Shown here: in pieces, positions 2,195 to 10,213 of the stretch | How positions within the stretch are numbered: position 1 is the first letter of the stretch | How the letters are laid out: every line of letters begins with the position of its first letter | Notes under the pieces: generated by a model | Told to the model about the DNA's origin: nothing | The model's database searches: none | The model's input: only the letters and a program-made list of their open reading frames with translations | Source of the DNA: a virus | Length of the DNA stretch: 44,307 nt | Strand: one strand, 5' to 3' | Virus genome (UHGV): UHGV-0213691 | Program-made: the position numbers and the translations under genes

Positions 2195-3615
2195 TTTTTA
2201 CCTCGTCTCTTCATGTAATTAAGCAACTCTTCCTGTACCGATTTCTTCTCGTCTGTACGCGCGGCGACAACCTCGTCCAGCGTGTCTTTAGCAACGATGT
2301 GGTACAGGAACACTGGTCGCTCGTGGCCTGCCTGTTTCTGGCGGACCGGGCCTATACGCTCGACAACCTGCAAATAGTGCTCAAGGTTCCAGCCTTGCGA
2401 AATAAACGCCAGATGATGTCCCCCATCCTGTAAATTCAAACCATGCCCGGCTGACGCAGGGTGGACGCACAAGATTTCGATTTCACCACGGTTCCACGCT
2501 TCCATCTGCTTATTACCCTTAGCCCCTTTGGCAAACGCCTGCGCCTGCGGGAATCGCTTAAGGATGCGCTCCAGTTCATGCTTGAACTGATAGGCCACCA
2601 GCAACGGTGCGCCCTGTAACTCCTCAACAATCGACTCCAGCGCGTCCAGTTTCGTATCGTGCACTTTCTCCCAGTCTTTCGTTGCTTCGCCGTCCGGCCC
2701 CGATACATACACGGCACCGGACGCAATCTGTAGGCACTTCGACGTCTTCGCCGCCGCATTAGCCGCTTCAACTTCCCCGCTCTCCAGTTCCGCGAATAAC
2801 TTCTCCTCCATATCGATGTACGCCTGACGTGCTTTCTTCGGCAGGTCGATTTCAACCGGCACAATAATCGGCGCTTCACACCCGAACCACTCGGCGGCGT
2901 CAATCGTAAGACTGATGTCCTTCATTTTCTGATGAATCTCATTATCCGCACCTGGTCGTGCGTGATACTCCCGCGCCATAGCTGACTTACCTTTCTGTAT
3001 CGAGTTAAACCAGCGGTCGGTGAATGCCGTGTAGGAAGAACCGAGTCGCTCGCCCGCGTCGATAAACCAGTTCTGGCCCCACAAGTCTTTGAGGCCGTTT
3101 GGCGACGGTGTACCTGTCAGGTTGATGAAACGCTTAACTTTACCGAACGCCACTTTACTAAGCGCCTTTGCTCTCTTGCTACCGCCTGAACGGCTGCGGA
3201 ACGATTTAAGCTTCGTGCTCTCATCAGCAACGATAACCGTAAAAGGCCAGTCGTCTTTGCCGTAGTAGTCAATCAACCACTCGATAACTTCGTAGTTCGT
3301 ACACACCACGTTAGCGTCAGACTCCAGCGCCGCGATGCGGCGTTTCTCTGAACCTGTTGCATCGACGACACGCAGACATGGGAACCGCCATTTCTCTTGT
3401 TCAGCGGGCCATGTACCGGATGCAACGCGCAGCGGGGCCAGGATTAACACTCGGTCGTCGTCATTAAGTTGCCCATTACGGAACAGTCGGTTTAAGGCCC
3501 ACAGTACGCTGCCAGTCTTCCCGGCGCCCATGCTTGCCCATATGTTGCAGCGATGGTGTCGCAACATGAACGAGGTCATGAGTTTCTGGTACTCGCGTCT
3601 TTGAAACTTACTCAT
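2191..3615 (-). CDS. SNF2/DEAD-like family helicase
   Basis: 474 aa; Walker A GAGKTG, DEAH-like VADESTK, ILAPLRVASGTW and LTGTPSPNGLKDLWGQ motifs. Confidence 0.85.
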   Translation of the reverse strand: MSKFQRREYQKLMTSFMLRHHRCNIWASMGAGKTGSVLWALNRLFRNGQLNDDDRVLILAPLRVASGTWPAEQEKWRFPCLRVVDATGSEKRRIAALESDANVVCTNYEVIEWLIDYYGKDDWPFTVIVADESTKLKSFRSRSGGSKRAKALSKVAFGKVKRFINLTGTPSPNGLKDLWGQNWFIDAGERLGSSYTAFTDRWFNSIQKGKSAMAREYHARPGADNEIHQKMKDISLTIDAAEWFGCEAPIIVPVEIDLPKKARQAYIDMEEKLFAELESGEVEAANAAAKTSKCLQIASGAVYVSGPDGEATKDWEKVHDTKLDALESIVEELQGAPLLVAYQFKHELERILKRFPQAQAFAKGAKGNKQMEAWNRGEIEILCVHPASAGHGLNLQDGGHHLAFISQGWNLEHYLQVVERIGPVRQKQAGHERPVFLYHIVAKDTLDEVVAARTDEKKSVQEELLNYMKRRGKK

Positions 3616-4537
3616 TTACCGCCCCCATGAACGCCTTTATAAATTCAGCGGCTACTTGCGGGACGATGGCATTGCCATAACCGCGCAATCGTCCCACTCT
3701 GGCGGGTATCCCATTAGCCAGCGGGAATGTGCCGGGTTCAACTGGCCGGAACTTTCCATCACGGCATCCGAGCCAGTCAGCATCTGACCAGAAGCCGTGA
3801 TGCGAATTGGTTGTGTTATTTTCAGACCCTGCTCCGTCGAGTAGTCCAGCCTGTCGAATGTCCTGTCCTTCCCGTCCTTGCGAATACCTGTCTTTCCGCT
3901 CCCCATGTAGTCGTTCGCTGTCGGTGTAGGCCAAGCCGCCAACGCGGCAGCCCATCCCAGTTTGTTCGGTTTCGTCCTGCCGTCTGTGCTGCGCATGTTC
4001 GCGTCGTTTGTTATCAGTGATACCGCCGGTGTGGGCCAGTCTGTGCGCGCCGAAGAAAAGTCTGTCGCGTTTGTGTGGCGCGCCGACGCTACAAGCTGGG
4101 AGTACCGCAAACCCGACGGCGTAGCCTTCTCCCTCCAGGTGAGTTTGTAAGTCGCACATCCACGATTTTGCAATTGCTGGCGCAACCTGTTCACCAAAGA
4201 GGACTGGAGGGCAGCACTCGCTGATGAGGTCAAGGAATACGGGCGCGAGGTGTCTTGGGTCGAACTGTCCGAGTTGCTTTCCTGCCGCGCTAAACGGTTG
4301 GCAAGGCGGGCTTCCCGTCCAGAGAGGCGTATCTTCCGAAACTCCCGCAAGTCTGAGCGCGAGAGGCCAGCCGCCGATACCAGCGAAAAAATGACACTGG
4401 GTGAACCCGTCGAGGTCTTCAGGTTTAACTTCGGTAATGCTTCTTTCATCTACAATTCCAAAAGGTATGTGACCCTGCTTTATTAATTCACGCAGCCACG
4501 CGGCTGCGCCTTTATCCCACTCATTGTAATAGTTCAT
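3608..4537 (-). CDS. DNA (cytosine-5)-methyltransferase-like protein, compact
   Basis: 309 aa; motif I FAGIGG, motif IV PPCQPFS (PCQ Cys), FGEQV (ENV-like), HKRDRLFF (RxR), GNAIVPQV; only about 20 aa between motifs I and IV. Confidence 0.6.
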   Translation of the reverse strand: MNYYNEWDKGAAAWLRELIKQGHIPFGIVDERSITEVKPEDLDGFTQCHFFAGIGGWPLALRLAGVSEDTPLWTGSPPCQPFSAAGKQLGQFDPRHLAPVFLDLISECCPPVLFGEQVAPAIAKSWMCDLQTHLEGEGYAVGFAVLPACSVGAPHKRDRLFFGAHRLAHTGGITDNKRREHAQHRRQDETEQTGMGCRVGGLAYTDSERLHGERKDRYSQGREGQDIRQAGLLDGAGSENNTTNSHHGFWSDADWLGCRDGKFRPVEPGTFPLANGIPARVGRLRGYGNAIVPQVAAEFIKAFMGAVNE

Positions 4538-4755: not shown

Positions 4756-5040
4756 CTAACTATAATAGTTCGCTATTAGGTCGTCAACCTCTTCTTTTGT
4801 TCCTACTACAAAAACATTTGCGTCACGTTTACGAAGCCGTTTGTGTTCCCGCAACTGATGGGCCTCCGGTTCCGTGTTTTCGTCTTTCTTCACCTCGACG
4901 AACCATATCACCCCTCCCGGAAGTACTACTAGCAGATCAGGCGCTCCGTTTCTACCCTCATACACCATCTTACGTACGAGGCCACCGAGGGCCTCGAATC
5001 GCTCTTTTGCGTATTTCTGGATGCGGCCCTCTTTAGTCAT
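4756..5040 (-). CDS. VRR-NUC domain nuclease
   Basis: 94 aa; PD-(D/E)xK-type signature PDLLVV...FVEVKK. Confidence 0.7.
   Translation of the reverse strand: MTKEGRIQKYAKERFEALGGLVRKMVYEGRNGAPDLLVVLPGGVIWFVEVKKDENTEPEAHQLREHKRLRKRDANVFVVGTKEEVDDLIANYYS
4759..4787 (-). promoter_or_regulatory. Sigma70-like promoter (TTGACG-17-TATAGT) with operator AATAG-N4-CTATT (4764-4777)
   Basis: Read on minus strand; hexamers with 17-bp spacer; lies inside the 3' end of the VRR-NUC ORF. Confidence 0.45.
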
Positions 5041-8440: not shown

Positions 8441-8673
8441 CCCTTCCAGCCAGTTATTTTCTCAACTATCAGTACGTATTCGAAAGGCCCCTCCAAATTC
8501 TGCACCCATTTAATTTCCTTCGTTGAGTCAAGTTGCTCGGGGTCTACCGTTTCGTACTTAATCGCAACGTAGACCGTGAGCGGAAGAAGGATAACTAGAA
8601 GCGGCACTAACATTGCCCAGTAAACTACGAAGGCCACAAGCCCGCCAAGCACCCTGAACATTTTACGAATCAT
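8437..8673 (-). CDS. Small membrane protein (78 aa)
   Basis: ATG at 8673 with GAGGAGGA RBS; hydrophobic core LVAFVVYWAMLVPLLVILLPLTVYVAI; ATGA overlap with DUF2800 stop. Confidence 0.4.
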   Translation of the reverse strand: MIRKMFRVLGGLVAFVVYWAMLVPLLVILLPLTVYVAIKYETVDPEQLDSTKEIKWVQNLEGPFEYVLIVEKITGWKG

Positions 8674-9944
8674 TCTAAATCCTCCTCTGTTACCTGATTC
8701 CACTCAGGACGTTTATCGTCTGCCGTTGCAACACATGGCGCGCCAGGCTTACGGGTCACGAGTTTAGCCAATTCTTCCCACAGTTCTGGGTCAATTTTAC
8801 CTATGGTTTTTTCTGCTTCTGTTGGGGTAACTGGCACTAGTTTATCTAATAAGTAGCCGTTTACATGGTTTTCTCTGAATTTATTTACTGCGTCTTCATC
8901 TTTCCACGCACGATTACCGGGACGACCTTCAACCAGCTTGTACCCAGGCACTTTCTTACCTGAATGCAACGCAGCAGCCATAGCTCTCTCCACCTTGTCG
9001 ATGTGCTGGCGCAACAACGGCAACTTCTCATACTCAGCTGCGAGTTGCTCTGGTGTAAGCTCCAGTGCAAAGTCGTCTTCCAGTTCTTCCGCCAGCACCG
9101 AGTTAACTGTTTTTGTACGCGCTGCGCACTGTTCGGAGAACCGACACCACTGACAACCATCTGCCGATGGCTTGAAGTCCGACGCTTTCAGGTTCTTCTT
9201 GCCACGTGAATAGGCGTCAAGCGCTAACAGAGCGCGTTTCTGTGCGAACTTAGCGAACAGTTCCAGACCTTCAACCGAGATGTCACACTCGGACGCACCG
9301 CCAGCATACGGCTGGAAGATAACAAGACGAACAACTGTGATGTTATAACGTCTCCTGAGTCGGCGATAAACACCGAGAGCGTAAAGCATTAGCTGCTTGT
9401 TTTCTTTCGCTTCGACACGATGCCGTCCCGTTTTAAGGTCGCCAATAATGAGCATGTGCTCGTCAGTGTTTGCCAGTTCCTGAACGGCAACAAGGTCGGC
9501 GGTGCCGAACGTCTCAATGCCTTCGTAGCCCGGATGCAATACCTCAGTAAGATTGACGCGCATTTCCAGCTTGGCGTAAGTCGCTACATCGATAATCGCT
9601 TTGCAGTAATCGGTGTACTTGCGCACCTGCTCAATCATATCCGTCGTAATCAGTACCGCACCTTTCATCGGGCTTATTAGCGCCTTAATCTGGCCTTTAC
9701 CTTCATCCAGCACGTAAGCACCGACTTCACGCTCTAATGGCAACGCAGTACCGCGTATATAGGCGTTGAGATGTACCTCAGCTATGGTGTGACACGCGGT
9801 CCCTATAACGGCGGATTTACCCGAAGTGTTAGGAATATCTTTTTCACAGGCCAGTGACGCCGCGCATGACAGCCACTTTTTCGCCCCAGACGGCGACAGT
9901 AAGGCGTGCACATCGTTATTGCCACCGCGTTCCTTTAAAATCAT
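8670..9944 (-). CDS. DUF2800-like PD-(D/E)xK nuclease with C-terminal Cys cluster (Cas4-like)
   Basis: About 424 aa from ATG 9944 (track start 9959 is GTG); N-terminal LSPSGAKKWLSCAASL; C-terminal CQWCRFSEQC cluster. Confidence 0.65.
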   Translation of the reverse strand: MILKERGGNNDVHALLSPSGAKKWLSCAASLACEKDIPNTSGKSAVIGTACHTIAEVHLNAYIRGTALPLEREVGAYVLDEGKGQIKALISPMKGAVLITTDMIEQVRKYTDYCKAIIDVATYAKLEMRVNLTEVLHPGYEGIETFGTADLVAVQELANTDEHMLIIGDLKTGRHRVEAKENKQLMLYALGVYRRLRRRYNITVVRLVIFQPYAGGASECDISVEGLELFAKFAQKRALLALDAYSRGKKNLKASDFKPSADGCQWCRFSEQCAARTKTVNSVLAEELEDDFALELTPEQLAAEYEKLPLLRQHIDKVERAMAAALHSGKKVPGYKLVEGRPGNRAWKDEDAVNKFRENHVNGYLLDKLVPVTPTEAEKTIGKIDPELWEELAKLVTRKPGAPCVATADDKRPEWNQVTEEDLE

Positions 9945-10213
9945 ACCCTGCTCTCCCACTGGTCAATTAAATGTCGTGTCTTATGTTCGCAGTGCATAGC
10001 CCACCCATACATCGACTCGAAGACATAAAAGTCAGGTTTGGCAAATGTCGTGCGCTTAATCTGCGACACGTGACGGCCTATATCTTTAGGCCGCGGTACT
10101 TTGCCTAAGTACGCCATCTCTTTCATCTGGTGCGCACCGGACGGCGCACGCAACAGCCATAGCGCCTCTGTGTTATCCCGCCTGTCTACGGCGCGATAGA
10201 GTTGGTAAATCAT
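9941..10213 (-). CDS. Hypothetical protein (90 aa)
   Basis: ATG with GAGGA RBS; its first 28 codons are duplicated at 10693-10769. Confidence 0.5.
   Translation of the reverse strand: MIYQLYRAVDRRDNTEALWLLRAPSGAHQMKEMAYLGKVPRPKDIGRHVSQIKRTTFAKPDFYVFESMYGWAMHCEHKTRHLIDQWESRV
10137..10213. repeat. Direct repeat copy 1 (77 bp; 63-bp identical core 10151-10213)
   Basis: Near-identical to 10693-10769; covers the 5' coding end of gene 9941-10213 and stops at its start codon. Confidence 0.85.

Follow-up and report, generated by a model that had tools for sequence, protein, structure and literature searches.

A phage gene that encodes, in two overlapping frames, what is probably a two-chain C5-cytosine DNA methyltransferase

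M.EcoHK31I, reportedly described originally by Lee, Kam and Shaw in 1995, and M.AquI, reportedly described by Karreman and de Waard in 1990, are C5-cytosine DNA methyltransferases made of two chains. In the published accounts, M.EcoHK31I (YGGCCR), from an E. coli restriction-modification (R-M) system of type II, is a heterodimer: the gene for the β chain lies wholly inside the α gene in another frame and both chains are needed for activity; α carries motifs I-VIII and X, β carries motif IX, and about 42 N-terminal residues of β are dispensable (PMC2836561, PMC3404938). M.AquI α/β is a natural two-chain enzyme split in the variable region after motif VIII (PMC5944983, PMC3404938). Here we describe a locus in the virus genome UHGV-0213691 (44,307 nucleotides; the window) where a gene for a C5-methyltransferase-like protein of 309 amino acids plus stop (A) contains, in its +1 frame, a second open reading frame (ORF), B. 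This one stretch of DNA probably encodes two proteins that would jointly form a C5-cytosine DNA methyltransferase, with A as the catalytic subunit and B as the subunit for target recognition and motif IX.

The A/B locus is like M.EcoHK31I, by its published description, in that the second chain is wholly nested in the first in another frame; A, like α, carries motifs I-VIII plus X, and B has a candidate motif-IX block and, like β, a dispensable-looking N-terminus. This match between the two partitions raised our confidence that B is the partner of A, and M.EcoHK31I is the one experimentally proven precedent for the architecture. The differences are that the nested ORF here takes up about 86% of the gene, starting at A codon 30, and that the motifs of A follow the order II-III-I. 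Moreover, unlike M.EcoHK31I, which belongs to an R-M pair, A/B is an orphan in a phage replication module, with no cognate restriction endonuclease among its neighbours, and a variable region resembling a target recognition domain (TRD) is selected here in the nested frame alone, whereas the TRD of M.EcoHK31I is placed on α. The small chain of M.AquI is a separate, non-nested subunit made of the distal variable region and motifs IX and X; motif X of our locus, GNAIVPQV, stays in frame A, so that A/B is not a split of the M.AquI type.

Both ORFs are maintained and are under purifying selection. Across 80 viral loci (A identity down to 42%), the +1 frame is open over 220-420 codons and the +2 frame is broken. 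The number of stops expected in each frame was obtained by shuffling synonymous codons of one frame and counting stops in the other, in 81 loci with A identity of 42-96%; tests of separate regions used 61 loci, and the test of the start codon 71. When A is shuffled, about 4.0 stops are expected in frame B, and none is seen in 81/81 loci (median P 0.0025); when B is shuffled, frame A is expected to acquire about 8.8, and again every one of the 81 loci has none. The third frame contains about 15 stops, versus some 13-14 expected. B is open across the catalytic core of A in 61/61 loci, with 3.3 stops expected there; frame A, for its part, has no stop in the variable middle in 61/61 (3.7 expected). 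The opening of B always falls at A codons 17-39, and a frame-B ATG is found at A codons 21-36 in all 71 loci; at its dominant positions, A codons 30 and 36, the predicted Shine-Dalgarno-like duplex has about -6 to -8 kcal/mol, compared with a background of -2.7.

Four-fold degenerate sites show where each frame is constrained. In the A-only ends of the gene, pairwise identity at the four-fold sites of A is random (0.30 and 0.29); inside the overlap it is 0.49 and 0.67, and the sites are near-fixed at A104-154 and fixed at A268-285. The fixed valine codons differ by position (V118 is GTT in 43/43, V145 GTA in 31/31, V151 GTC in 27/28 and V281 GTG in 38/40), and fixation of different codons for the same amino acid rules out codon bias. 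Conversely, the four-fold sites of B are first codon positions of A, and their pairwise identity is 0.80 in B 1-74 and 0.65 in B 75-135, both over the A core, 0.37 in B 136-215, over the variable middle, and 0.71-0.76 in B 216-258, over the C-terminal module of A. At A30-103, then, A is constrained and B only weakly; at A104-165 and A245-293 both frames are constrained; and in the variable middle B alone is constrained, while A need merely stay open. The middle of B consists of modules with a W.TP signature; in the codons for W, T and P the first two positions are fixed and the third is free (identity 0.29-0.50). Read in frame A, these bases (about residues 166-248) give a low-complexity, disordered and unconstrained stretch that is always open, and its length ranges from near zero to >200 residues across relatives. 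OLGenie-style ω values for A, 0.29, 0.82 and 0.25, agree with this regional picture.

By its predicted structure, A has the large-domain fold of a methyltransferase. The AlphaFold2 (AF2) model, built from a 135-sequence alignment, is confident over residues 1-170, with a predicted local distance difference test (pLDDT) of 80-96 in the core; residues 191-251 are disordered and are followed by a low-confidence hairpin region, residues 270-288 are of low confidence, and the helix of motif X at 293-308 is again confident. Foldseek matches the model to M.HaeIII (1dct, E 2.3e-7) and M.HhaI (2z6a; 169 columns, root-mean-square deviation 3.3 Å, 24% identity). At the sequence level, A matches phrog_363 (E 2e-88), a large phage family to which N15 gene 58 and the methylase of epsilon15 also belong, and PF00145 aligns over residues 73-169 only, corresponding to profile positions 65-165 of 324 (E 2.2e-16, 60.6 bits, cutoff 22); the TIGR00675 score, 40.4, is under the cutoff of 100.65. 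A phmmer alignment places A 75-162 on M.HhaI 77-168, with PPCQPFS on FPCQAFS, FGEQV on FMENV and PHKRDR on PQKRER, so that the cysteine of the PCQ motif is in a sound catalytic context. Motifs VI and VIII are variants of ENV and QxRxR (N to Q and Q to H), and E116, R157 and R159 are invariant in the 135 sequences.

These results bear out much of a preliminary description of the gene, which a model had made from the nucleotide sequence. It had proposed a C5-cytosine methyltransferase-like protein, and the catalytic domain is confirmed by PF00145 and by the resemblance of the model to M.HhaI and M.HaeIII; the five motifs that it named do succeed each other as given, FAGIGG (51-56), PPCQPFS (77-83), FGEQV (114-118), HKRDRLFF (155-162) and GNAIVPQV (288-295); and the gap from motif I to the PCQ motif is indeed short: 21 residues separate PPCQ from the end of motif I, where M.HhaI has about 57 (F18..P80). 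Whether A is a self-sufficient compact enzyme is another matter. A shares with the monomeric enzymes M.HhaI and M.HaeIII the core fold, motifs IV, VI and VIII and the motif X helix, but its motif order differs and its chain lacks a TRD and a motif IX: from motif VIII to motif X, A is disordered or of low confidence and its middle is unconstrained, which makes self-sufficiency unlikely. The constraint between VIII and X lies in the nested +1 frame instead, in the second long ORF that the preliminary description had missed.

Nor does A have the canonical motif order and the 50-residue N-terminal extension that had been ascribed to it. What precedes FAGIGG is motif II (residues 3-8) and a strand resembling motif III. 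HMMER aligns A 3-13, YYNEWDKGAAA, with M.HhaI 37-47, YSNEWDKYAQE, which is motif II, and A 35-66 with M.HhaI 2-33, which is motif I; TIGR00675 aligns A 3-182 with profile positions 25-177, that is, from motif II onward. In M.HhaI, E40 and W41 of motif II contact the ribose and adenine of S-adenosylmethionine (AdoMet). Further on, VDERSITEV may correspond, as mapped by inspection, to M.HhaI GDITQV. The seven strands of the AF2 model are 2-5 (followed by NEWD), 27-30 (VDERSI), 47-50 (followed by FAGIGG), 72-75 (followed by PPCQ), 112-118, 139-146 and 159-166, and this strand order, together with the alignments, gives A the order II-III-I-IV. The short spacing between motifs I and IV is therefore due to rearrangement of the motifs and not to a deletion. 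Residues Y4, N5, E6, D30, R32, F50-G53, G55, P78-Q80, E116 and R157/R159 are invariant in 135 relatives of A, so that the order marks the family and is not special to this phage.

The natural permutations known among C5 methyltransferases are all circular, with motifs IX-X before motif I (PMC5944983). The circularly permuted type H enzymes (M.BssHII, M.Alw26I, M2.Eco31I, M.Esp3I and M2.BsaI; Albert et al. 2018, PMC5944983) likewise depart from the I-to-X order in a way compatible with the fold. They start in the variable region, with IX-X ahead of I-VIII, whereas in A the block II-III is transposed within the AdoMet-binding half; motif X of A is C-terminal, and A is not a type H permutation. 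From alignments and the predicted strands, the A family appears to carry a previously unclassified, non-circular motif order, one that a REBASE query for 'X before I' would miss.

The product of the nested frame belongs to a family of its own. B matches phrog_1008 (E 5.5e-59), and the family is very large, with 6,025 relatives counted at 90% clustering; at 50% identity (E <= 1e-3) it comes to 10,262 clusters. An AF2 model of B alone is not globular (pLDDT 60, predicted template modelling score 0.29), which is what one would expect of a subunit that takes its fold on a partner. Its residues 1-74 are disordered; the confident parts (pLDDT 84-93) are a helix (76-95) and a hairpin (101-123), the W.TP modules are extended, and the C-terminal block, AHSRWLMG..PPEWDD, is helical. 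The end of B, QLNPAHSRWLMGYPPEW, resembles motif IX of M.HhaI, KLHPRECARVMGYPDSY, and a natural variant of the block, FHPIMARQIMGFPPEW, is closer still. In the DNA, this block sits immediately before motif X of A, and the B stop at 3652 falls within the codons of motif X. The number of W.TP modules is 1-6 in viral relatives and 1-5 in bacterial loci. Tryptic peptides specific to frame B include TDWPTPAVSLITNDANMR and WLMGYPPEWDDCAVMAMPSSR. The authors of a few K1 phage genomes (GU196279-GU196281) annotated B as 'Mte8-like', and RefSeq names it 'DNA methyltransferase'; we did not trace the source of the label in papers or database names, and 'Mte8' may derive from an old Swiss-Prot-style methylase mnemonic. 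A literature search for an earlier description of the nested gene in phages found none.

The two-chain enzyme may work as follows. A would be the catalytic large domain, with motifs II-III-I rearranged and followed by IV, VI, VIII, a long disordered linker and the motif X helix, which must then fold back onto the core. B would start from its own ATG in the +1 frame at A codon 30, and its first 75 or so residues would be a weakly constrained by-product of the coding sequence of A. The helix-hairpin of B is the likely docking element, and the variable W.TP modules are likely to recognise the target. By analogy with β of M.EcoHK31I, B would associate with A in trans and complete the enzyme by supplying motif IX and the TRD, and the pair would form 5-methylcytosine (m5C). 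More generally, we see an even chance that these phage and prophage C5 methyltransferases, a very large family and an ancient one, are obligate two-chain enzymes, each produced from one doubly coded gene, in which the TRD modules are written in the +1 frame, the same bases in frame 0 give no more than an open, disordered tether between the catalytic core and the helix of motif X, the motif order is the non-circular II-III-I-IV, and M.EcoHK31I is the sole characterised member or an analogue.

Several observations weigh against a two-chain enzyme. B lacks a significant sequence or structural match to any methyltransferase small domain: there is no Pfam or NCBIfam match, a B-profile search of PDB sequences to E 10 is empty, and Foldseek of the B model against PDB gives nothing meaningful (best E 0.4). 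To probe whether the gene was ancestrally read in a single frame, we assembled in silico an A-B-A chimera (A1-166 + B137-255 + A286-309) and scanned it against Pfam and PDB; its motif IX segment is collinear with M.HhaI 261-289, and the alignment is non-significant, scoring -1.6 bits. The OLGenie-style ratio for B is 0.67-0.79, modestly below 1, and the A-only tail used as a control also gave 0.64, which is why we replaced this dNN/dNS measure with four-fold-site conservation. The TRD of M.EcoHK31I, in the literature, is assigned to α and not to β (PMC2836561, PMC3404938). Engineered M.MpeI and M.SssI, split into [X + I-VIII] and [TRD + IX], showed no complementation (PMC5944983); this counts against a naive domain split, but does not settle the case of a pair that has co-evolved in nature and has a helix-hairpin dedicated to it. 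Finally, some relatives of B are fused to other enzymes, a DUF2800 nuclease or Dam, so that B may function without A.

The rival that survives best, which we consider unlikely though a serious contender, is that B is a real nested protein with a function outside the methyltransferase (DNA binding, regulation or anti-defence), and that A works alone by means of its small C-terminal hairpin. The lack of significant similarity of B to known domains would fit, as would the occurrence of B-like modules fused to a PD-(D/E)XK/DUF2800 nuclease and to Dam methyltransferase, the failure of the engineered split between large and small domains, and the retention of the A hairpin module (W250...R264) where B differs or is truncated (L021, L056). 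Such a B, however, would leave A without a constrained region where the TRD and motif IX belong; in 0/80 bacterial loci does B occur without an overlying A-type frame, the conserved block that ends B aligns collinearly, if not significantly, with motif IX and stands immediately before motif X of A, and M.EcoHK31I provides a precedent.

Very improbable, in our judgment, is the reading that extends the preliminary description, by which A is a single, self-sufficient orphan C5 methyltransferase with an N-terminal extension, the +1 ORF being untranslated and kept open by a nucleic-acid or compositional constraint. All catalytic motifs and motif X do lie in frame A, and standard pipelines such as PGAP annotate A only. 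Yet the middle of the gene has classical coding periodicity in B, contradicting an untranslated B, and is unconstrained in A; stops are avoided in all loci, the start codon of B is conserved, and the N-terminus of A is motifs II and III, not an extension. Least probable of all is programmed frameshifting, frequent in phages, from A (1-~166) by +1 into B (~137-255) and by -1 back into A (~286-309) to make one canonical chain: such a chimera is exactly 309 residues long and has the collinear motif IX segment, but it gains nothing over A in Pfam (60.2 bits vs 60.6), an X XXY YYZ slippery heptamer is present at the B-to-A junction in 3/40 loci and is not conserved, the nucleotides at the junction that follows motif VIII are not conserved, upstream of the first junction B remains open over about 135 codons and shows selection of its own at B 76-135, before the supposed shift, and A is open through the whole middle. 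With no conserved slippery sites and with both frames open far beyond the junctions, we rejected the double programmed frameshift.

Table 1. Features of the A/B locus in the window, UHGV-0213691 (residue numbers refer to the A or B protein)
Feature	Position	Strand	Evidence or remarks
Frame A coding sequence, predicted C5-cytosine methyltransferase catalytic subunit	3608..4537	-	ORF listing; PF00145, phrog_363, AF2, Foldseek
Motif II, A 3-8 YYNEWD	4514..4531	-	phmmer to M.HhaI 37-47; TIGR00675 register; Y4, N5, E6 invariant
Motif-III-like strand/loop, A 29-37 VDERSITEV	4427..4453	-	AF2 strand 27-30; D30, R32, I34 invariant
Motif I glycine loop, A 50-56 FFAGIGG	4370..4390	-	aligns with M.HhaI LFAGLGG; invariant; strand 47-50
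Motif IV, A 77-83 PPCQPFS	4289..4309	-	codon of catalytic Cys79 at 4301-4303; P78, C79, Q80 invariant
Motif VI (ENV variant), A 114-118 FGEQV	4184..4198	-	same bases encode LVNRL in B; V118 GTT in 43/43
Motif VIII (QxRxR variant), A 155-162 HKRDRLFF	4052..4075	-	R157, R159 invariant
C-terminal module of A, A 249-287 FWSDADWLGCRDGKFRPVEPGTFPLANGIPARVGRLRGY	3677..3793	-	overlaps B C-terminus; W250, D254, D260, R264 and others invariant
Motif X and C-terminal helix, A 288-308 GNAIVPQVAAEFIKAFMGAVN	3614..3676	-	G288, N289, A290, I291 invariant; helix 293-308, pLDDT 86-92
Frame B coding sequence, 265 amino acids + stop, nested in A, +1 frame	3652..4449	-	ORF listing; phrog_1008; open in 81/81 loci
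B start ATG	4447..4449	-	directly after a B-frame TAG; within A codons V29-D30-E31
Conserved helix and β-hairpin, B 76-125 (LQSSL.NRL...LTWK..TP.GR...AS.RRT)	4075..4224	-	overprinted on A motifs VI-VIII; both frames constrained
Variable W.TP modules, B 136-215, two here (DWPTPA, AWPTPT)	3805..4044	-	candidate target-recognition region
Motif-IX-like helix, B 236-255 QLNPAHSRWLMGYPPEWDDC	3685..3744	-	near-invariant; AF2 helices 239-246 and 251-256

The window is from a Kagunavirus, a lytic K1G-like siphophage of the Guernseyvirinae, and the region of the locus is 91-94% identical to K1ind2/3, Golestan and others. Gene A is translationally coupled to its neighbours, with an ATGA overlap with an upstream 63-residue ORF and an 8-nucleotide overlap with the downstream gene for an SNF2-related helicase; B is in phase with the same helicase gene, its stop TAG (3652-3654) being followed by 12 codons and then by the helicase ATG (3613-3615, minus strand). 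In the replication module, A has as neighbours the helicase gene, a small ORF and one that is nuclease-like, and upstream lie genes for a family-A DNA polymerase and a DUF2800 nuclease. As for the neighbours named in the preliminary description, the SNF2 helicase stands (PF00176, downstream gene), and the VRR-NUC label comes from the annotation of relatives: there the 94-residue ORF at 4756-5040 (minus strand) is called VRR-NUC or Holliday junction resolvase, and Pfam gives only a sub-threshold match to pPIWI_RE_REase, a PD-(D/E)XK-type nuclease, with no VRR_NUC match at E <= 0.001. The 429-residue DUF2800/PD-(D/E)XK nuclease at 8670-9959 (minus strand; E 2.7e-69) is of the family that other phages carry fused in frame to B. 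The gene was also described as an orphan, and it is indeed phage-borne, with no restriction enzyme among nearby genes. Kagunavirus isolates are reported as highly sensitive to the R-M systems that were tried (PMC11990801), so that any protection by the methyltransferase, the putative anti-restriction role named in the preliminary description, would be narrow.

B-like coding was found in 242 annotated phage records, among them N15 gene 58, epsilon15, BcepC6B, and Rhodobacter, Xanthomonas and Vibrio phages, and lies under a methylase gene in almost all of the matches listed. Its conservation spans phages of Gamma-, Beta-, Alpha- and Deltaproteobacteria, and the nesting of the ORF inside an A-type ORF was checked in N15 (242 codons), epsilon15 (348) and RcCWillis (352). 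Among bacteria, 340 species-representative genomes carry B-like coding. Of 80 bacterial loci, 73 have B inside an A-type ORF that carries motifs IV and X; the other seven look like contig ends, variants of the motifs or pseudogenes, and B is free-standing in none of the 80. The homologues sampled in E. coli genomes are found in prophage contexts only, and in these prophages PGAP annotates A only. In Kagunaviruses with flanks 91-97% identical, the middle cassette is replaced by other W.TP modules; this replacement explains why megablast matches to close relatives are split in two. Compared by megablast with K1G, K1H, K1ind1 and three further relatives (L013, L014, L066), the swapped cassette is 3794-4042 (minus strand), and modules differ in number and kind.

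Several variants of the locus were seen. In L019 and L020, the B ORF continues for 777 and 776 codons, respectively, into a DUF2800/PD-(D/E)XK nuclease, as it also does into that nuclease in P0140, and in P0136 B is fused to a Dam-type methyltransferase. At L030:1444-3342, A is a 633-residue ORF, the C-terminal half of which resembles a Dam-type N6-adenine methyltransferase and contains DPPY; judged by these motifs, it would be a C5+N6 fusion that still holds a nested B. Two loci from one metagenome, L018:1589-2323 and L039:1589-2422, have a frame change that joins the B N-terminus, MKEALPKLSQKTLTGSPSVIF, to A at FAGIGG and removes motifs II and III from that ORF; the change is either a sequencing error or a natural variant. 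At L056:1447-2643, B ends after 203 codons, ahead of the motif-IX-like block, and A retains CRDEKYRPIEPG..PLAHG and has an insertion of about 20 residues before GNAIVPQ. The persistence of the C-terminal module of A in a locus that has lost the end of B suggests that the A hairpin is selected independently of B. In enterotoxigenic E. coli H10407 (2986590-2993862; L167), a decayed integrated element has genes for the polymerase, DUF4406, VRR-NUC, the methyltransferase, SNF2 and an integrase, the same module as here; the polymerase and SNF2 genes are pseudogenes, the former by a frameshift and the latter by an internal stop, but A (337 residues) and nested B (294 residues) are intact, and a convergent gene for a 309-residue protein with no Pfam family abuts the methyltransferase.

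Genes overprinted on the same strand are familiar in phages from λ Rz/Rz1 and φX174 A/B/K, and as in these cases one gene lies here wholly inside another in a different frame. Unlike those, B is unusually long (220-420 codons), and two segments of about 60 and 45 codons have both frames under strong purifying selection. In both its length and the breadth of its conservation, A/B ranks among the foremost same-strand dual-coding regions of double-stranded DNA phages and bacteria, and the doubly selected segment of motifs VI-VIII against the helix-hairpin offers a test bed for the theory of overlapping genes and for methods of their detection.

The layout is conserved in thousands of phages and prophages, mostly without annotation. 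Standard pipelines call A only, in the RefSeq E. coli prophages as in most phage records, and the B family is consequently largely invisible or inconsistently labelled; A/B is probably a member of a very large, mostly mis-annotated, doubly coded family of two-chain C5 methyltransferases. If B is required, cloning a codon-optimised 'methyltransferase gene' would silently destroy B and yield an inactive enzyme, and assigning the m5C motifs of prophage methylomes to genes would need two chains. M.EcoHK31I has been used for targeted methylation, as reported in PMC2836561, and a C5 methyltransferase that is split by nature and has a recognition cassette open to swapping would be a useful scaffold for the same purpose. 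If the two-chain reading is true, the design would be present in N15, epsilon15 and thousands of prophages, M.EcoHK31I would be no one-off curiosity, and these enzymes could acquire another specificity through exchange of a cassette that is 'silent' as far as the catalytic chain is concerned.

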